Positions 1 to 28,034 of a stretch of DNA of 64,000 bases are shown one piece after another. Position numbers and translations under genes: made by a program. Source of the DNA: Myxococcota bacterium (lineage in GTDB: Bacteria > Myxococcota_A > UBA9042 > PHBI01 > JAWLBL01); contig JAWLBL010000005.1 of NCBI GenBank assembly GCA_041687695.1, positions 36,382 to 100,381 of the forward strand. The letters are read 5' to 3'. A model generated the notes under the pieces. It made no database searches. It was not told the DNA's origin and was given only the letters and a program-made list of their open reading frames with translations. Each line of letters begins with the position of its first letter. Position 1 is the first letter of the stretch.

Positions 1-3
1 TCG

Positions 4-1410
4 TCATCGGTGAGCCGGCGTGCGCAAGCCCCGACACCACCTGGACACGCGGTCCCGCTCGCGCGACGAGAGGATGGCCCATGCTGGGCCGTTACGGATC
101 TGCCAACCCAGAACCTCGTTCGAGACGCCGTAGCGGGTGCGGAGGAGGTTTGCAGCATCATCGAAGGAGCTCGCCTCGGCGATGGCGCGGAAGGCGGTCT
201 CGCGGGGCAGCAGGAACTCGGCGGCGAAAGCGCGCGCCCGCTGCTCGAGGTGCTTGGGCGTCGAACCTCCGACGACATCGACGACTGGGAGGTGCCGAGT
301 GCGGTCGATGAGCAGGTGTGCGATCTCGTGGCACAGGGTGGCACGCCGACCGCTGCTGGACCCGGCGTGACGCCCCTTGGGGTTGAGCAACACGGCGGGG
401 CCGTGGCGAGCGCCCCAGACGGCGACGGCGTCCAGCTCGCGCTCCAGAGGCGGGAGTTCGTCGATACCGACAGCCCAGCCTGCCAGGAGCTCTTCCGGAG
501 AGACCCGGTCGTCGTGGATGTCGAGGACGGTGCGGAGCCACTGCGCGAGGACGTAGCCCTGTTGGTGAGGGGGGGCCGCGCCCACCGCGTCGAGCACGGC
601 CTGGGCCCCACGAGCCAGGTCATCGAGGATGGGCGTCGAGTAGAGGGGTTGGTCGGAAACAGCAAACACGACGGCGCGCCGAGTCGAGTCTGAGAGAGGT
701 TGGCTGAGACGTGCAGCCGCTGATACGGGGCTCTCCATCGGGTCCGCCGGGTCTCCCCACCAGGTCTCAGGGTCCGCTCCGGCAGGCGTCCAGTCGGCGC
801 GCCGCTCGGCGTCGAGCCCGGTCCGCCAATCCAAGATCCGCGATCGAGACGGCGCACGGCGATCCCAGCGGGCGAACGCCGCCATCGCCCTTGGTGCGGC
901 CTCGGCGCCGAGGTGAGCGCGAAGCTGCGAGACGGCTCCTTCTAGAACGCGGAGCGTTTCCTGGTACGGCAACCACAGGGCGAGGTCCCGCGTGCGCAGG
1001 CGGAACCCGAGCCCCTCGCGGACGAGCCACACGGGAGGGAGAGTGAGGCCCTTCAAGCCGGCTGCGAGGTCGTGTCGGTGCTGGTAGGCATGGACCGCGT
1101 CTTCGACGACCAGCGGGTCTGCGCCCTGTGCGGTAGCAAGGACCGAAGGAGACCTCAGCTCGTCGAACTCCACGTTAGGCAACCCGAAGGGTGGCTGGTC
1201 TTCGTGCAGCAGATGGCCCCAGGCGCGCGCAAGGTGCTCGACGAGGTCGATCCAGGTCCATGCGACCGGCCGCTCTGGATCGTCGCCGCTCCAATGACGC
1301 AGCCCTCCGACCCATAGCACGAGGCCTCCCCAAGCGAGGCCCTGGACATCCTTCGGGATGTCGCGGCTCCAAGAGAAGTCGAACGCCAGGTGAGCGCGGT
1401 CTCCGATCAC
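4..1410 (-). CDS. ImmA/IrrE family metallo-endopeptidase domain protein
   Basis: C-terminal RATLCHEIAHLLID...EQRARAFAAEFLLP (HExxH plus E-xx-A-xx-FA-x-E-L motif). Start placed at GTG 1410, which overlaps the upstream TGA (GTGA); ATG 1434 is an alternative. Confidence 0.8.
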   Translation of the reverse strand: MIGDRAHLAFDFSWSRDIPKDVQGLAWGGLVLWVGGLRHWSGDDPERPVAWTWIDLVEHLARAWGHLLHEDQPPFGLPNVEFDELRSPSVLATAQGADPLVVEDAVHAYQHRHDLAAGLKGLTLPPVWLVREGLGFRLRTRDLALWLPYQETLRVLEGAVSQLRAHLGAEAAPRAMAAFARWDRRAPSRSRILDWRTGLDAERRADWTPAGADPETWWGDPADPMESPVSAAARLSQPLSDSTRRAVVFAVSDQPLYSTPILDDLARGAQAVLDAVGAAPPHQQGYVLAQWLRTVLDIHDDRVSPEELLAGWAVGIDELPPLERELDAVAVWGARHGPAVLLNPKGRHAGSSSGRRATLCHEIAHLLIDRTRHLPVVDVVGGSTPKHLEQRARAFAAEFLLPRETAFRAIAEASSFDDAANLLRTRYGVSNEVLGWQIRNGPAWAILSSRERDRVSRWCRGLRTPAHR

Positions 1411-1820
1411 GGCTCGCTGTGCTTCTTCAGCCATCGCTCGAAGATCTCCTGGGTCCCTTCCTTGGCCGCGCGCTTTCGGAGCTCCTCGCGGATGCTTCCC
1501 GGCATGCGTCCGCGCCAAGGATAGCCGTGGTAGCTCCGACCTGCCAGCGTGGTCACAGCCTTATAGGGAACACCGCGGTAGACGTTGTAAATCGCGTCGG
1601 GGCCATCCACGAGGTCGTCTTCATAGAGCGAGGGCTCGGGGATGCCGGTCCGGAGCAGCGTTTGCGCCAGGTCATCCGTGATCGAGTTGTGGCACTTGCC
1701 GACCTGGCCGCGTTTGGATGGGAGGAAGCCGGCTTCATCGCGGTTCCAGCAATGCTTGGTGCGGCCTTCGCCCCGTTCATAGGTGAAATGCTTCAGGTCG
1801 TGGTGTTCAGGCCACTCCAT
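1407..1820 (-). CDS. hypothetical protein, possible toxin partner of the ImmA/IrrE protein
   Basis: Clean 137-aa ORF from ATG 1820, coupled to the downstream gene; contains KHCW and YHGYPW motifs. Confidence 0.65.
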   Translation of the reverse strand: MEWPEHHDLKHFTYERGEGRTKHCWNRDEAGFLPSKRGQVGKCHNSITDDLAQTLLRTGIPEPSLYEDDLVDGPDAIYNVYRGVPYKAVTTLAGRSYHGYPWRGRMPGSIREELRKRAAKEGTQEIFERWLKKHSEP

Positions 1821-2007
1821 GACGAGTCCCTCGGCCAAGTGGGAGGCCGTCTCGGGTTAGCATGCGGGACTCCGTCGCGCAACAGCCTGCTGAAGGGCGG
1901 GGCGGCGGGGGATGTGGCCGGGGCGCTCGTAGTTGCCAAGCGGGACTCGAGCCTCCGAACCAAGGCCGAGCTCGTCTCCCCGCTTGGCGACCCGCAAGGT
2001 GCGCGCG

Positions 2008-2463
2008 CTAAGCGCGCGCGGACGCTTTCGAATGCCGCCCGCCGCGGTTCGCGGACGGGCGGATCGGATTGCCCTGGGCGGGGATGACGAAGCGGACGCC
2101 TCCGGTGGGGTCGTCGACGTCGCCCTGGTAGCGGGGGATGACGTGGACGTGCAGGTGCATGACGGTCTGGCCGGCGGCGGGGTGGACGTTGATGCCGATG
2201 TTGTAGCCGTCGGGGGCGTGGGAGGCGTCGAGGGAGCGCTTGACGTCGCCGACGAGGGCGAAGAGGGCGCGCTGCTCGTCGGGGGTGGCGTCGAACCAGG
2301 TGGGGACGAGGCGCTTGGGGATGACGAGGGTGTGGCCGGGGGAGACCGGGAAGCCGTCGCGGAGGGCGAAGGCGAGGTCGTTCTCGGCGACGCGGTCGGA
2401 GGCCGGGCGGTCGAGGAAGACGGAGGAGGTGGGCGGCGGGGTGGAGGGGGTCGGCGTCGTCAT
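2008..2463 (-). CDS. HIT family protein (complete HIT domain, short non-conserved tail; possibly a truncated longer gene)
   Basis: DGFPVSPGHTLVIPKR...GYNIGIN...AGQTVMHLHVHVIPRY histidine triad. Confidence 0.8.
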   Translation of the reverse strand: MTTPTPSTPPPTSSVFLDRPASDRVAENDLAFALRDGFPVSPGHTLVIPKRLVPTWFDATPDEQRALFALVGDVKRSLDASHAPDGYNIGINVHPAAGQTVMHLHVHVIPRYQGDVDDPTGGVRFVIPAQGNPIRPSANRGGRHSKASARA

Positions 2464-2500
2464 GGGGGCGAGGATGGACCAGGGGGGCGCGGGGGGCAAG
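2068..2500 (-). repeat. HIT 5'-end repeat copy 1 (promoter plus >=132 codons)
   Basis: Near-identical to 5135-5470, 7089-7343 and 8207-8325, and degenerately to 10801-10921. Confidence 0.9.
2471..2499 (-). promoter_or_regulatory. putative sigma70-type leaderless promoter in repeat copy 1
   Basis: TTGCCC-17 nt-CATCCT-7 nt-ATG, with no Shine-Dalgarno. Confidence 0.5.
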
Positions 2501-2510
2501 GTGGGCCGTG

Positions 2511-3602
2511 TCAGGTGTAGGTCCTTGCAGCCCCGGTGGCTTCGACGTGACTGGTTCCGTCCGCGCGGAGGCGAATCGTCACGCGGCTGGGGCCTGCGCT
2601 CGTGGGCGCGGGGGTCCAGCCGGCCTGGAGGCATTTGGCGTGGGCGTGGCCGGCGGTGAGAGCGAGTGTTTCGGCGCGGGGGCGGAGCCGGTCGAGGACG
2701 ACCTGGTGCGGTAGCTGGGACCTGGCGAAGGGCGTGATGACCGCGATGCGGGTCTTGTCCGGGCTCGCGTGGAGGTCCCAGGCTTCGTCCAGCCAGGCGT
2801 GCCTGGAGCCGTGGTGGGGCACGCTCACGACGTGGACGTTGGTGAGGGTGTCGGCCTCGCCGCCGCGGGTCAGCTCGCGTAGGACGCCCCGCCAGCCGCG
2901 GGTCGGATTGGTTGGTGCCTCCACGTCGCCGCCGAGGAGGATCTTCCAGCCGCTCCAGCGCAGGACCAGGCCGAGGGAGACGAGATTGGGGTGGTCGCCC
3001 GGGCTCCGTTCACCCGTGAGGCGCTTCAGGGTGTTGTCGGCGATGGCGGGACGCTCGCCTCGCCACTCGACGATGTTCTGGAGCTGTCTGCGAGAGGCGT
3101 TCAGGTCGGCCGGAAGCGGGGCGATGACCGCGACGGAGGCGCCATCCGGCTGCCAGGCACGCTCCTTGGAGTTGAAGGCGACGTCGAGGCAGCGGTTGTC
3201 TCGAGCGAGCTGGTCCAGCCTCTCGAGTGCTGCGGCGAGGCGGCGCTGGCTGGGCGAGCGGCCGCCCCAACGGGTGAGGAGGTCTCGGACGAGCGATAGC
3301 GTGGGCCAGGTCCACGCGAGACGGACATCGAAGCGGCGAAGTAGAACGTCGAGGCCGTCGACGTGGTCGAGGTCCGGGTGCGTGACGATGAGGTGGTCGA
3401 TGGTCGTGACCCCGAGGTCATCGAGGAGGTCTCCCGTGAGAGAGCGGCCCTCGTGCTCGCAGCAATCGACGACGAGTGTGAGGCCGGACGGCAGACGAAT
3501 CACGGTGGATTCGCCGAAGCCCGGACCGAGGAAGTGGAGGGTCAGCTCCGGGGCAGGCGGTGACGCGGGGGCGCTGGGCGGGGGATCAGACCTCGAGGCC
3601 AT
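2511..3602 (-). CDS. MBL-fold metallo-hydrolase (ComEC/Rec2-like, putative nuclease)
   Basis: LHFLGPGFGES, VVDC, THPDLDHVDG (HxDxDH), LLGGD and VPHHGS motifs; ATG 3602. Confidence 0.85.
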   Translation of the reverse strand: MASRSDPPPSAPASPPAPELTLHFLGPGFGESTVIRLPSGLTLVVDCCEHEGRSLTGDLLDDLGVTTIDHLIVTHPDLDHVDGLDVLLRRFDVRLAWTWPTLSLVRDLLTRWGGRSPSQRRLAAALERLDQLARDNRCLDVAFNSKERAWQPDGASVAVIAPLPADLNASRRQLQNIVEWRGERPAIADNTLKRLTGERSPGDHPNLVSLGLVLRWSGWKILLGGDVEAPTNPTRGWRGVLRELTRGGEADTLTNVHVVSVPHHGSRHAWLDEAWDLHASPDKTRIAVITPFARSQLPHQVVLDRLRPRAETLALTAGHAHAKCLQAGWTPAPTSAGPSRVTIRLRADGTSHVEATGAARTYT

Positions 3603-5061
3603 CGCCTTGACTCCGCGCCGGTAGCCGCTTGTGCTCGAGGCCGGCGAGCCAGGGGTAGTCCGCCAGGAGGTCTGCCCAGATCTCCGCGGCCAGGGCCTTG
3701 CGGGCCGGGAGGATGAGCCATCGGGCGTGGTCGCGGCCGTGAAGCGCAACGGTCCGCGCCAGGTGCTCGCGGAGCTCGGAGCGGACGTCACGCCCCAGGC
3801 GGGCGTCGAAGCCGAGGCGTCGGCCGTGATAGAGCGGATTGTACGAGTCGGCGTCGGCGAGGCGGCAGGAGCTCAGGTAGGCGTCGGCGATCTGCCGGTC
3901 GAGGGTTTCGTCCGGGGCCGTCCGCGAGCGCTCGAGATTGAACCCGAGGTACTGCCATGCGTAGGCGTCCTCGGCATCGAACCTGGAGACGATCGTCGCG
4001 TACACCGCGGCGGCCTCACGGTAGAGCGCCGGCCGCCGGGCAGCGTGCGCGCGGTGACTGAGTTGGGCGGCGATGACGCGGAGGTCACTTGCGTAAAAGC
4101 GTGCAGTATCGAGCGCTAGCTGGAGGCTCCCGCCGAGGATGGCCTGTCGGTGGGCTTCGAGCGCGGCCTCGGGATCGCGGTTGGATTGTAGAGTGCGCGC
4201 CAGCTCGGAGCGCAGGAGTTGCGTCTCATCGCGGGCGACCAGGGCCTGCCTTCGTGCCAGCCGGTCGCGGAGGGGAGCGGCGATGGCCACGGTGCCGTTG
4301 CCGAGCTGCGTGAGTGCTCCCGACCTTCGGAGCAGGTTGATGGCGGCGCTGGAGAGTCGCCGGAGGCCGTCCTCGCCGGGTCCGAAAGGGCCGATGACGC
4401 CATTGATGGGATGTGCCTCGCGCAGGAGGGCCAAGCGGCGTAGCGAGGTGCGGGTCTCGGGATCCAGGAGATCCTCGTAGGCCGCGACGAGGGCGTCGTC
4501 GGGATCGTCTGCGCTACTGAGGAGCCTATGGAGGTGGTTGGCCTCGGCTCGTCCTTCGGCGACCATCCAACGCGCGAGGGGCCACAGTGCTGGGGCGACG
4601 TCGGGGAGCTCGGCAGAGGCGACGTGTTCGGTCGCGGTCGCGATGCGCCGGGCGTCCATGGCCTCGGTCACTTCAGGGCGGGGAGCGGACCTGACGAAGG
4701 TCCAGCCGTGCTCGGCGCCGAAGTCGAGAACGCTGGAGAAGAACTGGGCGCGTTCGCGCTGATTGGTCGCGTCGTCGAAGACGGCCTGTCCGGTGGGCGG
4801 AGACAGGTAAGCGGCGTCGGGATCGATGAGCGCAAGCGGAGCGTTGCCGCGCGTGCGAAGGGACTCGAAGGCGGCGGCGGCGCGCGCACGCCAGGGGGTG
4901 GCAGGATCGACAGCCTCGTCGCGCGCTTCGCCTGGGGCTCCCGCGTGGAGGGCCAGCAGAACGGAGAGGCGCAGGTGCGCGTCGTTCCCGTCACGGACCA
5001 GGACGGCGGGGACATCGGGGGGGACATCGACGCGGTCGGTGATTTGGGCGCGGCCGGTCAT
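3586..5061 (-). CDS. hypothetical protein with STAND-like winged-helix and TPR-like C-terminus, no clear Walker A
   Basis: ATG 5061; LDPETRTSLRRLALL...LLRRSGAL wHTH-like segment; DAYAWQYLGFNL TPR-like helix; overlaps the MBL gene. Confidence 0.6.
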   Translation of the reverse strand: MTGRAQITDRVDVPPDVPAVLVRDGNDAHLRLSVLLALHAGAPGEARDEAVDPATPWRARAAAAFESLRTRGNAPLALIDPDAAYLSPPTGQAVFDDATNQRERAQFFSSVLDFGAEHGWTFVRSAPRPEVTEAMDARRIATATEHVASAELPDVAPALWPLARWMVAEGRAEANHLHRLLSSADDPDDALVAAYEDLLDPETRTSLRRLALLREAHPINGVIGPFGPGEDGLRRLSSAAINLLRRSGALTQLGNGTVAIAAPLRDRLARRQALVARDETQLLRSELARTLQSNRDPEAALEAHRQAILGGSLQLALDTARFYASDLRVIAAQLSHRAHAARRPALYREAAAVYATIVSRFDAEDAYAWQYLGFNLERSRTAPDETLDRQIADAYLSSCRLADADSYNPLYHGRRLGFDARLGRDVRSELREHLARTVALHGRDHARWLILPARKALAAEIWADLLADYPWLAGLEHKRLPARSQGDGLEV

Positions 5062-5429
5062 GGCCGGACCATAGCGCCATGGGAGGTGGGGCTCAATGGG
5101 TAGCGACGGTGGGCTGGGGGCGCGGGGGGGATGCGGCCGGCGGCGGGGTGGACGTTGATGCCGATGTTGTAGCCGTCGGGGGCGTGGGAGGCGTCGAGGG
5201 AGCGCTTGACGTCGCCAATGAGGGCGAAGAGGGCGCGCTGCTCGTCGGGGGTGGCGTCGAACCAGGTGGGGACGAGGCGCTGGGGGATGACCAGGGTGTG
5301 GCCGGGGGAGACCGGGAAGCCGTCGCGGAGGGCGAAGGCGAGGTCGTTCTCGGCGACGCGGCCTTCGGCCGGGCGGTCGAGGAAGACGGAGGAGGTGGGC
5401 GGCGGGGTGGAGGGGGTCGGCGTCGTCAT
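5058..5429 (-). pseudogene. 3'-truncated HIT gene fragment (lacks the histidine triad)
   Basis: Near-identical to copy 1 up to ...NVHPAAG, then unrelated; its TGA overlaps the ATG of the next gene. Confidence 0.8.
5068..5096 (-). promoter_or_regulatory. putative sigma70 leaderless promoter of the 5061 gene
   Basis: TTGAGC-17 nt-TATGGT-6 nt-ATG. Confidence 0.55.
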
Positions 5430-5470
5430 GGGGGCGAGGATGGACCAGCGGGGGGCGGGGGGCAATGGGG
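5135..5470 (-). repeat. HIT 5'-end repeat copy 2 (promoter plus ~98 codons)
   Basis: Direct sequence match to copy 1; promoter TTGCCC(5465-5460)-17-CATCCT(5442-5437). Confidence 0.9.
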
Positions 5471-5495
5471 CGAGGGCTGGTCCTTTCGGACGCGC

Positions 5496-6476
5496 TCAAG
5501 CTGCGAAGGGGAGACTGTTCGCGACGTCGCACTCTGCCGAGTCCAGAGAGGTGGGGGCCTGGGTTGGCGTCCCTCCGAGCCACGCGAATGGAAGAGGATG
5601 CGTGGCGCCGCTTCGGATGGCTTCACGGAACTCCAGAGCGGCCCGAGGCGGCTGGCCAAGGGCGACGTAGGCGATGCCCCTGAGGAGATGAGGCTCGAAG
5701 CGCTCCGGAGCCATGCGTTGGGCTCGCTCGAGCCACTCGAGCGCACAGTCCAGGTTCCCCATCCGCCGGTAGATGATCGCCAACTCGAGCGAGGCACCAA
5801 AGCTGATGGCCGCGACTGGGCTGTCGTCGTGCGATGCCAGAGCTCGCTCCAGGACGGCTGCTGCCTGCTCGAAGAGGTCGGTCTGTTCGCGGCCAGGCGG
5901 CAGCTCGATGGCCCGTCGGAAGAGCACGTCAGCAGCGCGCATCGTCAGGCGCGGATTCGCGTGCGGGTTGGCAAGGATTCCCTGGGCGCGCTGGACGGCT
6001 TCTTCGGTTCGGTTGGCGCGAACCAGGTAGTCCAGACCAACGATGACGTAAGTGGGTCGAGCGGTGGTCATGCGCGCCGCATGATCGATGAACTCGATCG
6101 CCGCGTCGTACAGCCCCAACCCGGCCCATGCGCGCGCACGGCAGTAGGCTCGAATGTCTTCGTCGACGACATGCTGCAGGCGGCGAGCAATCTCGAGGAC
6201 CTGGCGCCAATCCCCCTGCCGCAGCGCCTCCGCCAGCATTGGAGGGTTGGCAGGCTCCGCATGTTCTGGGTTGTTCGTCTCATCGCCAGTCAGCGAGTAC
6301 AAGTCCGCGGAGAGGCCATGGACGATTGGGAGGTCGTCGGGTGACAGTTGATCCCAGGTCTCGTGCATGGCATCGCGCAAGGCATCCGCCTCATCCGTAT
6401 CGCCAAGCCCCTCACGGATGAGTCGATGCAGTTCGAGAGTCTGCTTGATGTGTTGGAAGAGTGGGCTCACTTCCAT
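5496..6476 (-). CDS. tetratricopeptide repeat protein
   Basis: Several TPR-like helical pairs (ARAWAGLGLYDAAIEF, LAIIYRRMGNLDCALEWLERA); GAGGAGG RBS. Confidence 0.75.
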   Translation of the reverse strand: MEVSPLFQHIKQTLELHRLIREGLGDTDEADALRDAMHETWDQLSPDDLPIVHGLSADLYSLTGDETNNPEHAEPANPPMLAEALRQGDWRQVLEIARRLQHVVDEDIRAYCRARAWAGLGLYDAAIEFIDHAARMTTARPTYVIVGLDYLVRANRTEEAVQRAQGILANPHANPRLTMRAADVLFRRAIELPPGREQTDLFEQAAAVLERALASHDDSPVAAISFGASLELAIIYRRMGNLDCALEWLERAQRMAPERFEPHLLRGIAYVALGQPPRAALEFREAIRSGATHPLPFAWLGGTPTQAPTSLDSAECDVANSLPFAA

Positions 6477-6482
6477 CCCTCC

Positions 6483-6905
6483 TCATGGTCCTTGCTCATC
6501 GATGAACCAGTCGGCACGCGTTCCCGCGAGCGCACGTTCATAGTCGCTGAGTTGCATTGGCACGACGGGCCCGACAACGCCATGACCTGGTCTGTCGACA
6601 CAAAGCAACAAGCTTGAAGTGAGTGGTCCTGATTCCCACACGCTGTCCCTGAGACGCCATACGTGTGTGCGGTCGTTGCCCGTGGCGCCCGGAACCAAGT
6701 GACGCAGTCGTCGCGGGACGGCAAACGGTGGAAGGTCGCGAAGCGTAGGAGCTACCGACATTCCACGACAGGGCTCCGTGGGCTGAACCGCGCCGGTGGC
6801 GTCGGGGCTGATGTCCTTCGGGACGCGAACGCCCAACTTGTCGGCTCCGCGTCCCACGAGAGGGCCGCCTCCGTCACGCCGCATCCCACGCAGGACCCGC
6901 GACAT
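6483..6905 (-). CDS. hypothetical protein, possible Tse2-like ADP-ribosyltransferase-fold toxin
   Basis: 140 aa with R-x-M, LGVR..DI, GMSV and HG-x-V-x-P motifs reminiscent of Tse2-like ART proteins; directly upstream of the TPR gene. Confidence 0.5.
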   Translation of the reverse strand: MSRVLRGMRRDGGGPLVGRGADKLGVRVPKDISPDATGAVQPTEPCRGMSVAPTLRDLPPFAVPRRLRHLVPGATGNDRTHVWRLRDSVWESGPLTSSLLLCVDRPGHGVVGPVVPMQLSDYERALAGTRADWFIDEQGP

Positions 6906-6973
6906 ACGATACCTCCTCGCGGCTTACGCCCGGAGCCTAACACCTGCGGCCGCCCGAGGCGACAACCTTGCGG

Positions 6974-7300
6974 TCATGAGCCACGGGACGGTCGTGAGGG
7001 GGCTTCGATGACCTTCTCGGCGAGCTGGCGGGTGGTGAGGACGTCGGGGGGCGCGCCGGTGCGGGTGGTGCCCTCGAGGCCGAGGTCGATGAGGGCGAAG
7101 AGGCCGCGCTGCTCGTCGGGGGTGGCGTCGAACCAGGTGGGGACGAGGCGCTTGGGGATGACGAGGGTGTGGCCGGGGCTGACCGGGAAGCCGTCGCGGA
7201 GGGCGAAGGCGAGGTCGTTCTCGGCGACGCGGTCGGAGGCCGGGCGGTCGAGGAAGACGGAGGTCGCGGGCGGCGGGGTGGAGGAGGTCGGCGTCGTCAT
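6974..7300 (-). pseudogene. 3'-truncated HIT gene fragment
   Basis: Matches copy 1 up to ...DEQRGLFALI, then unrelated sequence. Confidence 0.8.
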
Positions 7301-7343
7301 GGGGGCGAGGATGGACCAGCGGGGGGCGGGGGGCAATGGGGTG
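7089..7343 (-). repeat. HIT 5'-end repeat copy 3 (promoter plus ~70 codons)
   Basis: Direct match; promoter TTGCCC(7336-7331)-17-CATCCT(7313-7308). Confidence 0.9.
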
Positions 7344-7364
7344 GTGAGCCGGCGAGAGCCGGTG

Positions 7365-8098
7365 CTACGCCGGACGACGGCGCGGTGGCGGGGCCGTCAC
7401 GGACCTGAGGTCCGCGGTGAGGTCACGAAGGTCCTGAGGCAGGTAACCTTGCTGGTCGATGTTGGCGCGCTCGTCGGCATTCAACGCTGGGGCGAGGGCG
7501 GCTTTCTCGACGCGCCAAGAGGCGTAGCGTGGATGGGCTGTCAGGAACCGAGCGATGTGCGAGTCGAAGTGAGCCAGGTGCGAGAGCAAGCGGCCGGATG
7601 AACGCTTGCACGTACCGAAACGGATGATCTGCGAGTCCTCGTCGAGCGCCACCAGATCGATCTCGGTATCGCTGCGGTCCCAGTAGCCCTGGATGCGGTG
7701 CGTCAGGGAGAAGTCACCTATGCCTTTGCGGGCGCGCTCCTCGTAGAGCTGGGCCACAAGACGTTCAAATCCGTATCCTTCGGAGCTCGCGAGTCGTTCG
7801 TCGGCCATGTCGACGAGGATCTCCTCGGGGCGGAAGTTGAGCGCCGACACCGGGCTGGAGAGTGCGTCGAGCCATGCTCGGAGAAAGTTGTCCCTGATGT
7901 AGTAGCGGCTGCGGCGGGCGCGCGGCGCGGCAAAGATGGGGAGGCGCTTTTCCACCATCCGGTACTTCTCGAGGAGGATCTTGAGGTAGCCCCCTACCTG
8001 CTCGGCGGTCTCGGGGCTGACTGCGCGAACGTGGGCCTCGACGTCGCCGTGGGTGCATCCTGGATGGCGGGCCACGAACTTCAGGACGACGTCATAGT
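7365..8098 (-). pseudogene. 5'-truncated archaeal-type ATPase with DUF234/PD-(D/E)XK C-terminal domain (only wHTH and nuclease part remain)
   Basis: RYYIRDNFLRAW, FERLV, GYWDRSDTEIDLVA..GTCK motifs; no Walker A domain and no good start upstream. Confidence 0.7.
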
Positions 8099-8206
8099 CA
8101 TCGTTCGCTCCGCGATGCCGACCCAACTTAAGAAGTTTTCAGTTAGCGGGCGGACGGGCGCAAGAGCTTGATTCGATGCGGGGAATCGTGCTGACGGAGT
8201 GGCGGC

Positions 8207-8325
8207 CCGGGGGAGATGGGGAAGCCGTCGCGGAGGGCGAAGGCGAGGTCGTTCTCGGCGACGCGGCCTTTGGCCGGGCGGTCGAGGAAGACGGAGGACG
8301 GGGGCGGCGGGGTGGAGGGGGGCAT
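8207..8325 (-). repeat. HIT 5'-end repeat copy 4 (~39 codons, no promoter, pseudogene fragment)
   Basis: MPPSTPPPPSSVFLDRPAKGRVAENDLAFALRDGFPISPG; its ATG lies 6 nt after the previous stop codon. Confidence 0.85.
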
Positions 8326-8331
8326 GGCGGC

Positions 8332-8943
8332 TCAGCGGGCGGTGGAGGAGGACCGGCCGCGGGAGAGGAGGTCGTCGTTCACCTGGGGCCAGGGCGCGGG
8401 GTCCCAGTTCTCGATGACCTGGGAGAGGACCCAGTCGAGGGCCTCGGCTGGGGTGAGGGCCGGGAGAGGGACGCGAACCTTGGGAGGCGTGTCGAGGTCG
8501 GGTCCGACGTGGCCGTGGAGGGCGGCGTGTCCGCAGGCGCCGCTGCCCTGCTGGTCGGCCGTGTTCGTGTCCGGGTCGCGGCCCGCGTCGGGGAGGTGAA
8601 CGGCCACGGTCCAGGGAGAGTCGTCGTGGCGGCGGCCCTCGAGCATGATGTTCAGCTGGTAGAGGTGGCCGCGGCGGAGATCGAGCTGGACGAGGACGCT
8701 GAGTCTGGCTTGCGGGAGGTGCGGGAGGCCGCGAAGGGGCTCGGTGCGATCCGGACGTCCGGCGATGTAGTACGAGTGACGATTGCCCGTACCGCGCTCG
8801 TGCGTGAAGCGGCCGCGGATGTTCGTGTCGCAATGCCCGCGCTCGGCAAGGTTCATGAGGCGCTGTCGGATTTGTCCGGTCACTTCGCGCGAAACGGAGC
8901 GGATGGAGCGATGCTCCAGGTAGAGGTCGACCCAGCGCTTCAT
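8332..8943 (-). CDS. hypothetical protein with DUF2290-like C-terminal motif
   Basis: ATGA-coupled start at 8943; HAALHGHVG...KVRVP...LTPAEALDWVL resembles the H-x3-HxHxG...R(I/V)P...LTP motif. Confidence 0.55.
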   Translation of the reverse strand: MKRWVDLYLEHRSIRSVSREVTGQIRQRLMNLAERGHCDTNIRGRFTHERGTGNRHSYYIAGRPDRTEPLRGLPHLPQARLSVLVQLDLRRGHLYQLNIMLEGRRHDDSPWTVAVHLPDAGRDPDTNTADQQGSGACGHAALHGHVGPDLDTPPKVRVPLPALTPAEALDWVLSQVIENWDPAPWPQVNDDLLSRGRSSSTAR

Positions 8944-9482
8944 GAGCGCTCCAGGAGGATGGCCCTGTAGGCGATGGCAAAGTTCTCGGCCGTGTGTGGG
9001 ACCTGGTCGGCTCTCCACGAGGCGAGCCACTGTTCGGGGGACAGATGATAGCGGGCCTCGAACTCGGCGCGCTCGTGCTCGACGTCCAGGGTCGCCTGGT
9101 GCTCGGGGTCGGACTCGCTGCCGGCGAGCCAGCTCGAGAGGCTCGGGGCCTCTTCATTGAGCGCACGCCAGCCGTCGCCCTTGCGGAGGAGGAAGAGGAC
9201 GAGGGGGCCTGCTCGGTCGACCTGCAGGAGCTGGTCTCGGCGGCCGTCGAGCTCGAGGACGGCCGCTCTCTCGTCCGTTGGAACGAGGAGCGCCGTGGAC
9301 TCGTGAGCGGCGATGGCGTCCGAGACGGTGCTGACGACGCAGGGAGGCGCGTCGGGGGACGCGAGGCTGGCGACCTCGTCGACCAGCCAGTCTCGGAGCG
9401 CGAAGTCGGGGAACCAGACGAGCGCCACGCCGCCTGCGTCACGCTCGAGGGCGTTGACCAGGTTGGCGACGGGATCGGTCAT
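8940..9482 (-). CDS. hypothetical protein (degenerate NTPase-partner-like)
   Basis: 180-aa ORF with ATGA overlaps at both ends; LDGRRDQL...PLVLF...APSLSSW segment. Confidence 0.65.
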   Translation of the reverse strand: MTDPVANLVNALERDAGGVALVWFPDFALRDWLVDEVASLASPDAPPCVVSTVSDAIAAHESTALLVPTDERAAVLELDGRRDQLLQVDRAGPLVLFLLRKGDGWRALNEEAPSLSSWLAGSESDPEHQATLDVEHERAEFEARYHLSPEQWLASWRADQVPHTAENFAIAYRAILLERS

Positions 9483-10660
9483 GGCGCGGCCTGCGGCTCG
9501 GGCGTGAGGAGCGGGCGCACGAGGGGGTGGGGTCGCATCACCGTGCGGCCCTTCTCCGTGCGTTCGAGCAGGATGGCGTGGGCGAGTAGGCGGACCTTGC
9601 GGGCGAGGTCCATCTCGCGGCCATCGGTGCCGTCGACCAGGCGGAGGGCTTCGGTGTCGCCTGGGAGGAGCGCGCGGAGGAAGCTGGCCTCCATGTCGCG
9701 CCCGGCTTCTTGGAGGTGGGGTTGAACGACCGGCCAGTCGGTGCCCCAGGTCTGGCGCGCATAGGTGCCGGCGTCGGCGACGAGCTGGAGGAACATGCGG
9801 GGGAGGCCGCCGCTGAGCTCGGCGGCGTGGCGGAGCAGGGCATGAAACTCGGCAGGAATGGAATGGTCAGCTGCCAGGAACGACAATATGTTGTCGTCGA
9901 GGCCGTCGGCGGCAAGAGAATGCGCCCTCAGTCCGAGCCGAGCTTCGAGGATCCTGACCAAAAACCCTCGCCCCTCGAAGTCGCCTTCGGCCTCGACCGG
10001 CACGGCCTGCATGACAACGAGCTTCTCTCCGGGCCGCATGACGTCTTCGGCAAGGGGACCGTAGACGGCTTGCCAGGGGACGACGGCGACCAGGTCCACG
10101 CTCTCGGAGAGCGCGCCGAAGGCCTGGAGGACGGCCTTTGCGCCCTCGCCTGCCTTCTCCAGACCGTCGATGAGCAGTGTCACTCGGCGCTGGCGTGAAG
10201 CGTTCGCGACCTCGTCCACGATGGAGCGCAGGAGGACGGCTTCGGAGGCGCGTACGGCTTCGGCTTCCGCCGTCTCCGAGTGGGTCTGCGGCAAGACGCC
10301 GCTTTGCACCAATGCGGCTCGAAGGGGCGCGGAGATGGGGAGATGGAGTGCGTCGCGTGCGAGCTCTGCGAGGCGTCCTGCGGCACGCAGCTGGGCCCGC
10401 TCGGGCGTGAGCTCGCGCATGTTCTCGAAGCGGTCGAGTTGAACCAGGCAGGCGACTCGCTCGCGCTGGAGGAGCTTGGCCGCGTGCGCCAGCTCGGTGC
10501 TCTTTCCGACACCGACGGGGCCCCCGACCAACACCGTAGCCACACCGGAGACGACCGTATCGGCGAGCCGCCGCGCGACCTCGTTGGGAGGTGGCGCATA
10601 GCGAGCGTCGTCGACCCCGAGCGGTCGGTGGGGCGTCAGGCTTCGCCAGTCCGGCTGCAT
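9479..10660 (-). CDS. P-loop NTPase (STAND/AAA-like)
   Basis: Walker A GPVGVGKST, Walker B LLIDGLEK, SGGLPR (GxP) motif; ATG 10660 with GAGG RBS. Confidence 0.8.
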   Translation of the reverse strand: MQPDWRSLTPHRPLGVDDARYAPPPNEVARRLADTVVSGVATVLVGGPVGVGKSTELAHAAKLLQRERVACLVQLDRFENMRELTPERAQLRAAGRLAELARDALHLPISAPLRAALVQSGVLPQTHSETAEAEAVRASEAVLLRSIVDEVANASRQRRVTLLIDGLEKAGEGAKAVLQAFGALSESVDLVAVVPWQAVYGPLAEDVMRPGEKLVVMQAVPVEAEGDFEGRGFLVRILEARLGLRAHSLAADGLDDNILSFLAADHSIPAEFHALLRHAAELSGGLPRMFLQLVADAGTYARQTWGTDWPVVQPHLQEAGRDMEASFLRALLPGDTEALRLVDGTDGREMDLARKVRLLAHAILLERTEKGRTVMRPHPLVRPLLTPEPQAAP

Positions 10661-10800
10661 GGAGACCTCTTGCACGTCCGACTCGCCGGGAACCTTAGCG
10701 CCGAGCGGGCGCGGTGTCATGTCGGATGCGGCCCAAGGTAGGGGGAGACGGAGCCGGCTCGGGGCTCATGGCGTGCGGTGGACTCGCTCGTCTGCTTGGG

Positions 10801-10921
10801 CTCGGCGACGCGGCCGGAGGTCGGGCGGTCGAGGAAGACGGCAGGACGCGGGCGGCGGGGTGGAGAAGGTCGTCGGCAAGGGGGGAGGATGGATCAGGGG
10901 GGCGCGGGGGCGATGGGGTGA
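10801..10921 (-). repeat. HIT 5'-end repeat copy 5 (degenerate, frameshifted, decayed promoter)
   Basis: ctcggcgacgcgg...gggcggtcgaggaagacgg...ggcggcggggtggag...aggatgga..ggggggcgcggggg aligns with copy 1; ATG changed to TTG and -35 to TCGCCC. Confidence 0.8.
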
Positions 10922-11204
10922 GGGGGCGATGCAGGGCAAGCGCAAAGTCTCAGGTGGCTCGCCACGCCTTGCATTGGGCGCGGCTAGCCGCGCTCGGCCG
11001 GAGCACGAGCGAGCTCGCGCAGTCCGATCGACGGCCTCCGGGGTGGATTCGGGGCGGCGAGCCTCGACGGCCCGGCGTAGCTCGCCGAGGCTCGTGGGGC
11101 GCGGAGTTCGCTGCGCACGACGCTGGAGGGACTTTGCGATGAGCTGGAGGGCGATGAGGGCCAGCGCGTGGCCATGGCGGACAACCTGGAGTCAGTGGCG
11201 GATT

Positions 11205-11255
11205 CGGCGCAGCAAGCTGCGCCGCGCCGGGGCTCCACCAAGGTGGAGCACTCCG
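11205..11255. repeat. REP-like double hairpin (half element)
   Basis: CGGCGCAGC-AA-GCTGCGCCG and GCTCCACC-AA-GGTGGAGC-ACTCC; same sequence at 62192-62241. Confidence 0.7.
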
Positions 11256-11331
11256 GGGGGCGCTTGCGCGGGGCTCGGTGGCCGAAGCGGCTCGTGCGTC
11301 GCGGGAGACGCGCTCATCGGACGGGGCCGGG

Positions 11332-14300
11332 TCAGCCGGCGACGACCTTGGCGGCCTCGAAGGCTGGGAGGGGCATGGGGGTGCGCAGGCGCCAGGTGAT
11401 GGAGATGGGGCGGCTGCCCTGGTGGTCGACGAGGTCGGCGGGGCCGAGGAAGAGATAGGGGGCCGTGAGCTTGCGGGGGTCTTTCTTGGCGTCGCGGACG
11501 AAGAGCAGGATGTGGGAGCCGGTGTCGCGGTGGGTGAGGTAGCGGCGGCCGGTCGGGGAGTCGGGGGTGGTGGTCGACTGGGACTGCCAGTGGAAGAGCT
11601 CGGGCGTGAGGGGGTAGTCCTCGTAGCGGGTGGTGGGCGAGAAGTGGCGCTCGGTCTTGTGGAGCGTGATGAAGAAGAGGTCGGTGCGGGTGCCCGGGTC
11701 GTAGAAGACGCCCTCGCGCGGGGGCGTGGGGCGGGTCGGGTCGAGGCGGGCGAAGGCGGCGATGATCTCGTCGCGGGTGTAGCGGCCGTGGACGTGCAGG
11801 GGCGCCGGCGACAGGGGCAGCGGCTGGTGGGGCGCCTGGGAGCGGGCGTCGAGGACGTCGAGGAGCTGGGTCAGCTCGGCGAGGACCGCCGGGTGGCGCC
11901 AGAGGTCGTCGAGGGAGGCCTGGAGGGAGGGCCAGGCGTCGCGGGAGCCGCGCAGGCCGAAGTGGAGCATGGCGAGGAGGCGGCGGTCGCGCTCGGACAG
12001 GGCGGACAGGTCGGGCGGCGCGGGGGCGGCCAGGACGCGGCGGTAGGTCTGGCAGCGCTCGGGGTCGTCGACGTGCAGGAGGGTGGCGAGGGAGCGCAGG
12101 AGCGGGGCTTCGTCGGGGCCGGGCGGCGGTGTCGGCAGGCCGGCCTCTCGGCGGACGGTGGTCCAGGACCAGCCGCGGCTGCGGTAGAGGTCCTCGGGCT
12201 CGAGCAGGGTCTCGCGGAGGAAGTCGGCGAGGGTGACCGTGGGGCCGAGGCGCTGGGCGACGGCGCGCAGCTCGTCGGCGAAGCGGCGGGTGGTGGTCGG
12301 GAGCGAGGCCTTGATGTGGGCGAGGATGGTCTCGCGGGCGACCGGGTCGAGCTCGAAGTGGCAGCCGGCGGGGAGGTAGGGGAAGCCGTGCTCGATGACC
12401 TCGGTCAGCGCGCGGCGGGAGGCGCCGGACAGGGCCGCGTAGCGGAGATCGAAGCGGAACTCCTTGCGCTGGCGGCCGATGAAGTCGAGCACGGTGCAGC
12501 AGGTCTTGCCGTCGGAGAAGCGCAGGCCGCGGCCGAGCTGTTGGAGGAAGACGGTGGCGCTCTCGGTGGGGCGCAGGAACAGGAGCGTGTCGACCTGGGG
12601 GACGTCGACGCCCTCGTTGTAGAGGTCGACGGCGAACAGGGCGTTGAGGTCGCGGCGGGCGAGGCGGGTCAGGGCGGCGTCGCGCTCGGCGGCCGGGGTG
12701 TCGGCCGAGACGGCGAGGGAGGGCAGGCCGGCGGCGGTGAACTGGGCGGCCATGAAGCGGGCGTGGTCGACCGAGACGCAGAAGCCGATGGCGCGCATCT
12801 GGTGGACGTCGGGGAGCTTGGCGCGCAGGGCGGCGAGGACCAGGGCGACGCGGGCGTGGTCGCCCGTGTAGAGGTTGGTGAGGTCCTCGGCGGCGTAACC
12901 GCCGCGGCGCCAGGAGACGTGGCGGAGGTCGGTGTTGTCGGACAGGCCGAAGTACTGGAAGGGACAGAGGAGCTGGCGGTCGAGGGCCTCCCACAGGCGC
13001 AGCTCGGCCGCGATGCGGTCGCCGAAGAAGGGCAGGACCGACTGGCCGTCGGCGCGCTCGGGGGTGGCGGTGAGACCGAGCAGGTAGCGCGGCTGGAGGC
13101 GGTCGAGGAGGCGCCGGTAGGTCGGCGCGGCGGCGTGGTGGAACTCGTCGACGATGACCATGTCGAAGTGGGCGGGCGGCAGATCGTCGGGGCCGAGGGC
13201 GTCGAGGGACTGGACGGAGGCGAAGACGTGGCGCCAGGCGTCGGGGCGGGCGCCGGCGACGAAGAGCTCTCCGAAGGCGCCGTCGCGGAGGACGGCGCGG
13301 AAGGTGTGGAGGGTCTGGAGGAGGAGCTCCTTGCGGTGGGCGACGAAGAGGAGCTTCAGGTCGCCGTGGGCCTGGACGAGGCGGCGGTAGTCGAGGGCGG
13401 CGACGACGGTCTTGCCGGTGCCGGTGGCGGCGACGACCAGGTTGCGAGTGCGGCCGTGGCGCTCGCGCTCGAGACGCAGGGCGTCGAGGATCTCGCGCTG
13501 GTGGGGGCGGGGCTCGACGTCGAGGTGGACGAAGCTGAGGGTCGGCGCGGGCTGGTGGCGCGCGAGGGCGCGGTCGAGGCGGGGGGCGTCGCGGGCGGGG
13601 TCGTAGGGCTGGAAGGCCTCGCTGAGCCAGTAGCTGTCGAAGGTGGCGCGGAACTTGTCGAGCAGGTGCGGGGCCTCGGTGTTCGACAGGCGGACGTTCC
13701 ACTCGAGGCCGTCGAGGAGGGCCGAGCGGGACATGTTCGAGGAGCCGACGTAGGCGGTCGAGTAGCCCGAGGCGCGATGGAAGAGCCAGGCCTTGGCGTG
13801 CAGGCGCGTCGTGTCGCGCTCGTCCATGGCGACGCGGATCTCGGCGCCGAGCTCGTGCAGGCGGTCCAAGGCGCGGCGCTCGGTGACGCCCATGTAGGTG
13901 GTGGTCAGCAGGCGCAGGGGGCGGCCGCGGTCACGGAGGTGGGCGACGAGGGCGGACTCGAGGGTGCGCAGGCCGTACCAGCGGACGAAGGCGAGGATGA
14001 CGTCGACGCGGTCGGCGGAGGCCAGCTCGCGGCGGAGCTCGGCGCCGATGGAGGGCTCGCCGTGGGCGTTGGTGAGGAGGGCGCTGCCGGACAGGACGGT
14101 GGTCGGGCGGTCGGGGGGCGCGGAGGGGGCGAGCGGGCGGGCTTCGGTGATGGCGAGGAGCTGGCGGGCCGGCAGGGCGAGGGCGTCGCCGTCGTCGGGG
14201 GCGCGGCGGGCGTCGCGCAGGACGGCGAGGACGCGCTGGTGCAGGGCGGCCTGCTCGTCGGGGCGGCCGCGGAGGGCGCGGGTCAGCAGGTGGTGGAGGT

Positions 14301-14466
14301 GGCGCGCGAGGGCGACGTGGGCGTCGCCGGGGTCGAGGGGCTCGGTGTGGGCGGTGGCCGAGGCGGGGAGCGCGCGGAGGCGGCGGTCGAGGGCCTCGGT
14401 GACCAGGGCCTCGTACAGCCCGGGAGGGAGCGCGTCGGGGGCGAGGTCGTCGGAGCCTTGCGTCAC
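11332..14466 (-). CDS. PLD-like nuclease / SF2 (DEAD/DEAH-like) helicase / DUF3427 domain protein
   Basis: LHAKAWLF...GSSNMS (PLD), ATGTGKT, DEFHH, TATPER, QQLGRGLR; C-terminal YEDY...FHWQSQS (DUF3427); AGGAGG RBS. Confidence 0.9.
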   Translation of the reverse strand: MTQGSDDLAPDALPPGLYEALVTEALDRRLRALPASATAHTEPLDPGDAHVALARHLHHLLTRALRGRPDEQAALHQRVLAVLRDARRAPDDGDALALPARQLLAITEARPLAPSAPPDRPTTVLSGSALLTNAHGEPSIGAELRRELASADRVDVILAFVRWYGLRTLESALVAHLRDRGRPLRLLTTTYMGVTERRALDRLHELGAEIRVAMDERDTTRLHAKAWLFHRASGYSTAYVGSSNMSRSALLDGLEWNVRLSNTEAPHLLDKFRATFDSYWLSEAFQPYDPARDAPRLDRALARHQPAPTLSFVHLDVEPRPHQREILDALRLERERHGRTRNLVVAATGTGKTVVAALDYRRLVQAHGDLKLLFVAHRKELLLQTLHTFRAVLRDGAFGELFVAGARPDAWRHVFASVQSLDALGPDDLPPAHFDMVIVDEFHHAAAPTYRRLLDRLQPRYLLGLTATPERADGQSVLPFFGDRIAAELRLWEALDRQLLCPFQYFGLSDNTDLRHVSWRRGGYAAEDLTNLYTGDHARVALVLAALRAKLPDVHQMRAIGFCVSVDHARFMAAQFTAAGLPSLAVSADTPAAERDAALTRLARRDLNALFAVDLYNEGVDVPQVDTLLFLRPTESATVFLQQLGRGLRFSDGKTCCTVLDFIGRQRKEFRFDLRYAALSGASRRALTEVIEHGFPYLPAGCHFELDPVARETILAHIKASLPTTTRRFADELRAVAQRLGPTVTLADFLRETLLEPEDLYRSRGWSWTTVRREAGLPTPPPGPDEAPLLRSLATLLHVDDPERCQTYRRVLAAPAPPDLSALSERDRRLLAMLHFGLRGSRDAWPSLQASLDDLWRHPAVLAELTQLLDVLDARSQAPHQPLPLSPAPLHVHGRYTRDEIIAAFARLDPTRPTPPREGVFYDPGTRTDLFFITLHKTERHFSPTTRYEDYPLTPELFHWQSQSTTTPDSPTGRRYLTHRDTGSHILLFVRDAKKDPRKLTAPYLFLGPADLVDHQGSRPISITWRLRTPMPLPAFEAAKVVAG

Positions 14467-14564
14467 GGAGGGCCTCCTGCGGGGGCGAAGGGAGGCGGCG
14501 ACCGTACTGCGCGGGCGGGAGGTCTGGCAACGGGGTGTTGGGGGGGGGCGAGCGCGCGGCGGAT

Positions 14565-14599
14565 TGCACGAAACTTAACTGAGAGTTGAGTTTCGTGCA
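14565..14599. promoter_or_regulatory. inverted-repeat operator upstream of AbiEi
   Basis: TGCACGAAACTtAACT-GAG-AGTTgAGTTTCGTGCA: 16-bp arms with one mismatch, abutting the ATG. Confidence 0.7.
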
Positions 14600-15240: not shown

Positions 15241-15323
15241 TTGTTGAAGGCTCAGCCTTCGGCCTTGGCGCGGCTGAGCAGGCGGGCGTGGACGGAGGCC
15301 GCGAGGTTCGCGGGGGTGGTCAT
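15231..15323 (-). pseudogene. abiEii: N-terminal stub of a second AbiEii toxin
   Basis: ATGA-coupled MTTPANLAASVHARLLSRAKAEG*AFNKLLQ, a typical AbiEii start (NxAASVxARL) with an in-frame stop. Confidence 0.7.
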
Positions 15324-25732: not shown

Positions 25733-25790
25733 CGGCTTCGGCGCGGCAGGCAGGCGCCACCGCGCCGCAACACGATCGCCTGGGGTGCGG

Positions 25791-25820
25791 TTGACGAGGT
25801 CCGTCAGGGTCTCTTAGGGT
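25791..25820 (+). promoter_or_regulatory. putative promoter of the tail/CIS operon
   Basis: TTGACG-18 nt-TAGGGT in the short intergenic gap. Confidence 0.35.
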
Positions 25821-25856
25821 CTGGCCTTCCAGCTTGGAGGCCGGATCCTGGACTTC

Positions 25857-28010: not shown

Positions 28011-28034
28011 CATCCCCCCTCGGAGGCCATCGCC

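Follow-up and report, generated by a model that had tools for sequence, protein, structure and literature searches.

The stretch of DNA analysed here (the window; 64 kb, G000:C5:36382-100381) comes from contig JAWLBL010000005.1 (C5, 324 kb) of a Myxococcota bacterium, whose draft assembly GCA_041687695.1 (G000) comprises 7.97 Mb in 63 contigs at 73% G+C. At its left end, a gene of the HIT superfamily recurs as five truncated copies that alternate with five blocks of cargo genes, in an array that runs from a helicase gene to an intact copy of the same HIT gene followed by an HNH gene. All array features lie on the minus strand (−). Numbering the HIT copies 1 to 6 in the direction of transcription, with copy 1 nearest the helicase, the order is helicase, copy 1 and cargo 1, copy 2 and cargo 2, copy 3 and cargo 3, copy 4 and cargo 4, copy 5 and cargo 5, and the intact HIT-HNH pair. 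The assignment to the HIT superfamily follows from the HIT domain that Pfam recognizes in copy 5 and from the histidine triad, HLHVHVIP, present in the translations of copies 5 and 6; copies 1-4 stop short of this motif.

HIT copies and their shared 5′ boundary

Copies were detected by BLASTN of the longest in-window copy (the copy 5 region) against the whole window, by repeat finding and by multiple alignment. BLASTN and repeat finding recover all five of the partial copies that an earlier note on this DNA had reported, and the only other BLASTN matches in the 64 kb span 33-79 bp (best E = 2.9e-4). Copy 1 (10801..10921 (−)), the most decayed, comprises a −35-like region and the first 82 nt of coding sequence (BLASTN 10910-10801, 114 bp, 87.7% identity, 3 gaps); the alignment and the table of variant sites show that its ATG was lost through a 4-nt deletion and that it carries further indels. 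Copy 2 (8207..8325 (−); BLASTN 8321-8207, 115 bp, 93.0%) spans HIT nt ~14-129. The 38 bp upstream and the initial 13 nt are missing, its 5′ part having been replaced by the end of a cargo 1 gene, and it abuts the cargo 1 stop codon.

Copy 3 (7005..7343 (−)) combines a promoter-like region and 215 nt of HIT (7087-7343; BLASTN 7336-7087, 250 bp, 96.0%) with a piece of the HNH gene (7005-7106). At HIT nt 215 it passes into ~85 bp of HNH sequence through the 10-nt microhomology CCTCATCGAC, and window positions 7005-7106 match C5:35610-35711 at 96%. Because it carries HNH sequence, copy 3 must once have spanned the whole HIT gene and at least ~215 nt of the HNH gene, or at least ~660 bp. Copy 4 (5135..5470 (−); BLASTN 5465-5135, 331 bp, 97.0%) retains the promoter-like region and 296 nt of HIT and breaks off short of the HxHxH motif; its open reading frame (ORF; 5058..5465) and the first cargo 4 gene (start 5061) overlap by an ATGA, where the former stops.

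Copy 5 (1895..2502 (−); main match 2502-2069) extends from the promoter-like region to approximately HIT nt 437 and is 98.8% identical to copy 6 over 434 bp. It is interrupted at HIT nt 399 by a 126/131-bp insertion (1938-2068) flanked by GGCAA, beyond which HIT sequence resumes as a 43-bp match at 95%. The copy 5 ORF (2008..2463; Pfam HIT, 1.3e-25) keeps the HIT motif and has an altered C terminus. The insertion itself is rich in short GC hairpins and has no other copy in the genome. GGCAA occurs both at this insertion and at cargo boundaries, and we considered an IS200/IS605-like single-strand insertion; the candidate was set aside, as the insertion is unique in the genome and such an event would not duplicate HIT.

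The intact gene lies only ~100 bp to the left of the window. A whole-genome search, together with the alignment of the contig's first 50 kb against itself, placed copy 6 at G000:C5:35806-36288 (−), where it encodes 147 amino acids and its stop overlaps the start of the HNH gene by 4 bp. Outside the array, the whole-genome search returned only weak matches of 28-107 bp to the HIT-HNH pair in G000. An exact 20-nt HIT word occurs at 37 loci across all genome contigs; none of these encodes any of the 16 query proteins, and we therefore discarded them as chance matches.

Along the direction of transcription, the HIT coding length retained by copies 1-5 rises from 82 through ~115, 215 and 296 to 399 nt, as the earlier note had described. 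Five lengths would fall in strictly rising order by chance with a frequency of 1/120. BLAST identity to the intact copy rises in parallel (87.7, 92.2, 95.6, 96.1 and 98.8%). The 3′ ends are ragged, differing in each copy in the alignments. Close packing of each copy behind the stop of the preceding cargo, which the note had also described, is found for copies 2-5 (~10, 22-28, 26-30 and 9 bp); the distance is 97 bp for copy 6, and 411 bp separate the helicase stop from copy 1. At least four of the truncated copies (1, 2, 3 and 5) bear secondary damage, which is erosion after insertion and agrees with the note's idea of erosion with age. As copy 3 was once longer, the length gradient must stem at least in part from later erosion, not from the original junctions. 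Nested insertion into the shortest copy, the note's other explanation of the gradient, is not favoured, because copy 3 originally reached into the HNH gene.

In contrast to the 3′ ends, the starts of copies 1, 3, 4, 5 and 6 agree to within ~8 nt and lie 35-46 bp ahead of the ATG. This boundary coincides with a hexamer, TTGCCC (TCGCCC in copy 1), which is followed by 17 nt, CATCCT, 7 nt and the ATG. The TTGCCC and CATCCT hexamers may represent the −35 and −10 elements of a leaderless transcript. This promoter-like region is kept in four of the five truncated copies and in the intact one. An RNA-mediated origin of the duplications was rejected because the copies extend ~38 bp upstream of the presumed transcription start.

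The copies also differ in a patterned way. At sites 64-68, copies 2 and 4 share a multi-nucleotide, amino-acid-changing variant, and copies 1, 3, 5 and 6 belong to the other class. A second split, at sites −25 and −20, sets copies 3 and 4 apart from copies 1, 5 and 6, and this makes copy 3 a mosaic of two allele classes in the table of variant sites. The alternation of allele classes along the array indicates that the 5′ ends came from different donors. Imported 5′ ends with crossovers inside the repeat account for it better than duplication in place and clock-like decay would; gene conversion could blur such an alternation but would not readily create it.

No recombinase that could have built the array is encoded near it. 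A Pfam scan covering 44 distinct ORFs between C5:1 and window position 38916 found no integrase, resolvase or transposase family, and neither PF00589 (tyrosine recombinase) nor PF00239 (serine recombinase) has a match anywhere on the 324-kb contig, extending the earlier observation that the window lacks a recognizable recombinase. G000 encodes three tyrosine recombinases (PF00589; on contigs C20, C18 and C9) and two serine recombinases, all off contig C5. The cargo ends show no attC-like hairpin: folding of the 70 nt before the boundary gave z ≥ 0 relative to shuffled sequences in five of six cases and z = −2.1 in one. Repeat finding detected no conserved inverted-repeat family, and Rfam gave no match at E ≤ 0.1 in window positions 1-15000.

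Cargo blocks and the genes that frame them

Between the helicase and the HIT-HNH pair lie ten cargo genes, all co-oriented (10/10). The blocks are mutually unrelated and mostly defence-like, and they look foreign. Cargo 1 (8332..10720 (−); G+C content at third codon positions (GC3) 0.82-0.87) comprises three genes: a STAND/AAA_16 NTPase (9479-10720; Pfam AAA_16, 1.1e-07; nSTAND5 and NACHT match weakly) and two that could be assigned to no family (8940-9482 and 8332-9030); none of the three matched PADLOC or NCBIfam models. Cargo 2 (7365..8126 (−)) is the C-terminal half of a 5′-truncated PDC-S27 gene of the DUF234 ATPase family, covering only positions 252-482 of the 484 in the PADLOC PDC-S27 profile (1.8e-92; Pfam DUF234, 3.3e-07). 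Cargo 3 (5496..6905 (−)) contains two genes, of GC3 0.65 and 0.74. They encode a 140-aa protein (6483-6905) with a weak Pfam ADPRTs_Tse2 match (4.7e-4; 21.2 bits, under the 26.6-bit cut-off) and a TPR protein (5496-6476; TPR_16, 4.7e-11).

Cargo 4 (2511..5061 (−)) likewise has two genes. The first encodes a 491-aa protein (3586-5061) without a Pfam, PADLOC or NCBIfam match, found in 2 of 107 genomes of the class, of which one is G000 itself and the other yields a weak partial match. The second encodes a metallo-beta-lactamase (MBL)-fold protein (2511-3791, true start uncertain; Pfam Lactamase_B, 1.7e-06) that matches PADLOC PDC-M48B (3.4e-10) as well as LmuA and reverse transcriptase (RT)-associated MBL models. 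Cargo 5 (4..1838 (−)) pairs a 143-aa protein without a family (1407-1838) with a 504-aa protein (4-1518) whose C-terminal domain is an M78/ImmA-IrrE peptidase (Pfam Peptidase_M78, 7.2e-10; PADLOC RmrA and CapP-like, ~1e-9). In total, six of the ten cargo genes have no family match above threshold. ORF translations revealed no in-frame fusion of cargo to HIT beyond short out-of-context tails.

The helicase, HIT and HNH genes appear from their composition to be the native frame of the array. Their GC3 is 0.98 (helicase), 0.97-0.98 (HIT) and 0.99 (HNH), against 0.65-0.87 for the ten cargo genes; with the frame at 0.98-0.99, the cargo looks like the newcomer. The helicase gene (11332..14466 (−)) forms the upstream edge of the frame and encodes a 1044-aa protein resembling SauUSI-type type IV restriction enzymes, in which a PLD nuclease, a superfamily-2 helicase and a C-terminal DUF3427 are united in one polypeptide: PLDc_2 (3e-10) covers residues 164-280, ResIII (1.1e-34) and Helicase_C residues 317-650, and DUF3427 (2.4e-21) residues 854-1033, and the PADLOC model mREase_IV PDLC03659 matches at 7.8e-284. 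The HNH gene (G000:C5:34658-35809 (−)) encodes 383 amino acids (Pfam HNH_4, 1.3e-09; HNH, 3e-07). The association of the three genes suggests that helicase, HIT and HNH might act as one defence system; the combination is no known validated system.

The gap between the helicase stop and copy 1 (10932..11270) is filled by two repeats, a 212-bp dispersed repeat (10932-11142) and a repetitive extragenic palindrome-like (REP-like) repeat of ~65 bp (~11205-11270). BLASTN of the gap found at least 12 copies of the former at 78-83% identity on many contigs and more than 200 genome matches of the 65-bp unit, frequently clustered in tandem and close to contig ends. Neither repeat matched Rfam.

The region as a whole is a defence island, its surrounding 50 kb containing SIR2, BrxC/D-like ATPase, McrBC and AbiEi genes. 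Directly downstream of HIT-HNH, to the left of the window, lie an HNH_2 endonuclease (L011 17188-18186) that weakly matches a phosphorothioate-DNA-binding restriction endonuclease model (48.6 bits, under the 180-bit cut-off) and then a 965-aa fusion of SIR2 and a protein kinase (L011 14160-17057; GC3 0.61), with a PD-T4-6-like kinase part. Further genes in C5:1-36000 encode a SIR2_2 protein, a BrxC/D-like ATPase, EVE-AAA5 McrB with McrC, and a helix-turn-helix (HTH)-M78 regulator; the same part of the contig holds a 1.5-kb two-gene tandem duplication (C5:19229-22311, 82.6% identity) and blocks of tandem repeats (C5:3998-4848, 10030-10739 and 22487-23059). Immediately beyond the helicase stand two divergent genes for AbiEi-type antitoxins or regulators (14599-15189 (+) and 15320-15925 (−)), both matching Pfam AbiEi_4 and the first also PADLOC (6.3e-68). 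Farther into the window, at 37417-38916 and among its neighbours (22055-41237), a Baseplate_J-like ORF and a 1225-aa Ig_7-domain protein may be part of a phage-tail-like or contractile injection cluster; for most ORFs around them, Pfam gives no match.

Related loci and the assembly of the array

We compared the array with relatives from its order (18 genomes) and class (107 genomes, both counts including G000), none of the same genus or family, and with 80 loci kept from a metagenome scan with the HIT protein, mostly on short contigs and at best 72% identical in protein. That scan found no near-identical contig, and no public sequencing runs containing window positions 1900-11400 were found listed. 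The HIT gene keeps varied company. Homologues of the 383-aa HNH protein follow it in 22/80 metagenome loci and 4/13 relatives' loci, and a PLD-helicase follows it or is fused to it in 7/80 and 4/13. Homologues of the array helicase (38-49% identity over nearly the whole length) lie close to HIT in 5/80 metagenome loci. In G002, G009, G017 and G010 a helicase-like gene comes after HIT or shares one open frame with it, and in G100 and G096 other genes follow. The HIT-HNH module is found across phyla, and the pair is annotated on Polaromonas and Aromatoleum plasmids. Homologues of the cargo proteins, by contrast, were absent from beside HIT in the 13 relatives' and 80 metagenome loci, with the exception of a PDC-S27 homologue 8.6 kb from HIT in G057.

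Duplication of the HIT 5′ end recurs in other genomes. In G010, of the same order, an intact HIT-helicase gene is accompanied by copies of 281 bp (94.7%), ~100 bp (79%) and 39 bp, and all four start at CCGTTGACACCC. G096 carries two 408-bp copies (96.6% identity). Both open with CCCCTTGACG, after which come 17 nt, CAGGCT, 6 nt and the ATG. The repeat begins with a −35-like hexamer in G000, G010 and G096 alike. In G100, two full copies are present together with two fragments, and contigs break nearby; in G057, an 80-bp piece of the HNH gene lies 3 kb upstream of HIT. Of 400 other genomes sampled evenly across the phylum, 76 carry the HIT subfamily (E ≤ ~4e-30), three of which have a second copy or fragment on the same contig. 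None of the 80 metagenome loci contains a duplicated HIT coding fragment; 5/80 show short repeats, of the upstream non-coding part only. The seven plasmid records with a HIT relative have it at a single place each.

Two further observations concern HIT 5′ ends. The Aromatoleum aromaticum plasmid NC_006824.1 has a HIT-HNH pair (87959-89331) whose HIT gene, annotated with only 106 amino acids, begins 140 bp beyond an IS21-like element; here an insertion sequence would have provided a further case of insertion at a HIT 5′ end. In addition, many subfamily HIT genes lie 125-600 bp from a contig start with their 5′ end toward the break (for example G018:C41, G087:C11, G044:C15, G100:C196 and G183:C340). 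In G100 this position goes along with extra HIT copies; in G018, G087 and G044 no additional fragment turned up.

We infer, at about even probability, that the array grew by serial displacement without a dedicated recombinase, through five successive invasions in front of the intact HIT gene. Each time, incoming DNA from a close relative would have carried a foreign cargo block and, behind it, that relative's HIT promoter and 5′ end. Host homologous recombination would cross over inside the HIT 5′ region. At the other end, the junction would form illegitimately inside resident HIT or HNH sequence (homology-facilitated illegitimate recombination), or through a second homologous crossover where the donor cassette already had HIT 5′ copies on both sides. 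Upstream of the new cargo, the promoter and 5′ end of the resident gene would be left as a 3′-truncated scar, with the HIT-HNH operon kept intact, the oldest unit beside the helicase and the youngest beside intact HIT. Scars would then decay by deletions, indels and insertions, and units between long, near-identical repeats would easily be lost by recombination; erosion and the preferential loss of such units would together give the gradient in length and identity. Erosion or survivorship is the best explanation of the length gradient. Scars with a −35/−10-like region probably also drive their cargo.

Much of this was anticipated by the earlier note, which cast the HIT 5′ end as a landing pad for units of cargo plus a replacement 5′ end. 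The boundary common to five of the six copies and the independent duplications flanking inserts in G010, G096 and G100 support the landing pad, and the replacement of 5′ ends fits the alternating alleles, the foreign GC3 of the cargo and the truncated cargo 2 gene. A 5′ truncation of cargo 2 is expected if the far end of the incoming DNA was joined at a random point. The note's pairing of one homologous with one illegitimate junction remains a hypothetical mechanism.

Several observations weigh against serial displacement. The 5′ boundary, held to ~8 nt in 5/6 copies and placed at the −35-like hexamer in three genomes, is sharper than would be expected if illegitimate joining were random. It calls for an additional assumption, be it a site-specific step, a boundary of the module or selection that keeps the promoter intact. 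The cargo is packed tightly, in cassette-like fashion, with 9-30 bp after its stop in four of five blocks and 57-100 bp before its first gene in four of five. On the columns common to all copies, copy 3 differs from copy 6 at ~8 positions and copy 4 at ~10, so any clock is only approximate. In G010 the lengths fall along transcription and the longest, most similar fragment is the farthest from the intact gene, so that neither the rising gradient nor the placement of the newest unit next to the intact copy holds everywhere. Among the genomes compared, no donor, empty site or alternative cargo order was seen, and the order and copy number of the array come from the draft assembly alone. Finally, hexamer resemblance is the only ground for proposing a promoter, and a sigma-70 consensus scan found 0 promoter-like sites in window positions 1-11500, the E. 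coli-type consensus being uninformative at 73% G+C.

Since the sharp boundary and tight packing are poorly explained by serial displacement, three alternatives stay alive. A recombinase acting in trans at a site just upstream of the −35-like hexamer could accrete cassettes of a HIT 5′ piece plus cargo in succession, as in the SCC and CIME/ICE islands and integrons compared below, with the ragged 3′ ends produced by later deletions. Such a site would account for the boundary, down to the TTG-hexamer in three genomes, and for the compact, co-oriented cargo, and the tyrosine and serine recombinases encoded elsewhere in G000 could supply the activity. However, none is on contig C5, the sequences before the boundary have no motif in common beyond a C-rich run, and the cargo ends lack attC-like structure. 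One site also predicts equal scars, yet these range from 82 to at least ~660 bp and each copy would need its own deletion, and the alternating alleles point to crossovers inside the repeat; we consider this explanation unlikely. Equally improbable, in our judgement, is a tandem series of once-complete HIT-led operons of polymorphic two-part systems, in which gene conversion homogenized HIT and deletions pruned the redundant copies. The varied partners of HIT, the operon-like start of every unit at a promoter-like boundary, the nearly full length of copy 5 and the HNH sequence once held by copy 3 are all in keeping with such operons. Against them stands the absence of cargo homologues beside HIT in the 13 and 80 loci, save the distant PDC-S27 homologue of G057, and the cargo GC3 lies far under that of the adjoining HIT fragments, so cargo and fragment must have different histories. 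Moreover, gene conversion strong enough to give 96-99% identity should also erase the alternating allele classes.

The third alternative makes the HIT-HNH module itself mobile, as a free-standing cassette in the manner of a homing endonuclease with its own promoter, repeatedly copied behind nearby defence genes, after which all copies except the last lost their 3′ parts. A compact module spread across phyla and onto plasmids, HNH sequence in copy 3 and in the G057 fragment, and a homology boundary that coincides with the module start all agree with this. It requires, however, that the module inserted six times independently within 12 kb, always in one orientation, and that a 3′ deletion followed each time; it makes the module the newcomer, whereas the native GC3 belongs to the frame; and G000 holds no other HIT-HNH copies, only the weak matches. 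We think it very improbable. Least credible of all is an assembly artefact, in which repeats were mis-joined and the order or number of units is wrong. The assembly is a 63-contig draft, and copies 5 and 6 share an exact 355-bp run, long enough to trouble short-read assembly; all other pairs of copies share exact runs of at most 83 bp, the flanks of every junction are unique, and the copies differ from each other in their variants and exit points. The array also lies inside a 324-kb contig, similar arrays occur in independently assembled genomes, and an exchange of copies 5 and 6 would leave cargo 5 closed on itself.

Beyond serial displacement lies a more general possibility, which we put forward tentatively and regard as fairly unlikely: that the HIT promoter and 5′ end constitute a portable homology handle, making any adjacent block a cassette that needs no recombinase of its own. 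A block between two copies would loop out, move between strains and re-enter any HIT-HNH genome through host RecA; the same repeat would supply the cargo promoter, and erosion of the repeat would set the stability of the array. If so, the handle would be a homologous-recombination analogue of the integron and a general route by which defence genes become embedded in other defence systems. The assembly of defence islands and embedded genes is largely unexplained where integrases and transposases are absent, and this locus keeps a five-step record of it: each scar gives a position, a relative age and a donor allele, and scars of the same kind recur at homologous HIT genes in other families. Should the proposed history be correct, defence islands could grow with no recombinase of their own, ordinary recombination by the host would be enough to bring foreign defence genes to a landing pad formed by a short promoter-proximal gene segment, the cargo would be expressed from duplicated promoters, and HIT 5′ fragments could be used as markers for new defence candidates.

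Comparison with known architectures

The open-access literature searched yielded no description of arrays of HIT 5′ repeats, and four known architectures invite comparison. In staphylococcal cassette chromosome (SCC) composite islands, the accretion of integrative and conjugative elements (ICEs) and cis-mobilizable elements (CIMEs), and tycheposons, islands stand head to tail, separated by direct repeats that are partial copies of a target gene, which itself stays intact; these repeats are short cores of uniform length set by the integrase. The HIT array resembles them in its stacked units, its direct repeats of part of a target gene and its intact target. Here, however, the repeats measure 114, 115, 250, 331 and 434 bp (scars of 82 to at least ~660 bp) and are ragged on one side, and a search for PF00589 and PF00239 found no integrase in any unit or on contig C5. 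Integron arrays share with the HIT array compact, co-oriented cassettes that gather at one end beside a promoter, and the earlier note's term integron-like applies loosely, to the accretion. It does not extend further: there is no intI, the cargo ends lack attC-like hairpins, what is repeated is a fragment of a gene, and every copy but copy 2, the intact one included, has a promoter-like region of its own.

The embedded defence genes treated by Payne et al. (bioRxiv 10.1101/2024.01.29.577857) are closer. In that preprint, embedded genes are 96.7% co-oriented, a 'genomic sink' is the only idea put forward, and a PDC candidate set was derived from embedded genes; it gives no mechanism, and the word 'recombination' is absent from its text. 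Foreign defence candidates likewise appear here between the genes of what may be a host defence locus, co-oriented in 10/10 cases, and cargo 2 belongs to PDC-S27, a PADLOC 'PDC' phage-defence-candidate model that may be part of the Payne et al. set. The HIT array differs from what the preprint describes in that each embedding appears to have left a datable scar, and the frame of helicase, HIT and HNH is not a validated defence system.

The closest parallel is sequential displacement (PMC5361080), and the architecture, which the earlier note did not recognize among described systems, thus has a precedent: such arrays have been described for type VI secretion system (T6SS) effector-immunity and Rhs loci. 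That paper, which cites Jackson 2009 and Koskiniemi 2014, invokes sequential displacement for orphan effector-immunity modules in Vibrio cholerae T6SS clusters and for orphan C-terminal tips of Rhs and contact-dependent inhibition (CDI) loci, and proposes that modules arose by homology-facilitated illegitimate recombination and later spread by ordinary homologous recombination. As described there, a constant sequence anchors homology, foreign modules enter beside it and push older ones along with a remnant of the constant part, and alleles are mosaic without a dedicated recombinase. The HIT array has one intact and five truncated copies of the constant gene, each with unrelated cargo, and mosaic alleles in the constant part. 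Its polarity is mirrored: the constant part is the HIT promoter and 5′ end and would lie downstream of the incoming cargo, the scars are 3′-truncated and the intact copy comes last. The cargo consists of whole, unrelated, mostly defence-like blocks and not of toxin tips with immunity genes (there is one sub-threshold Tse2-like match), and the anchor gene would stay intact each time, with nothing functionally displaced. The array is a variation on the known sequential-displacement and embedded-defence architectures, not a categorically new system.

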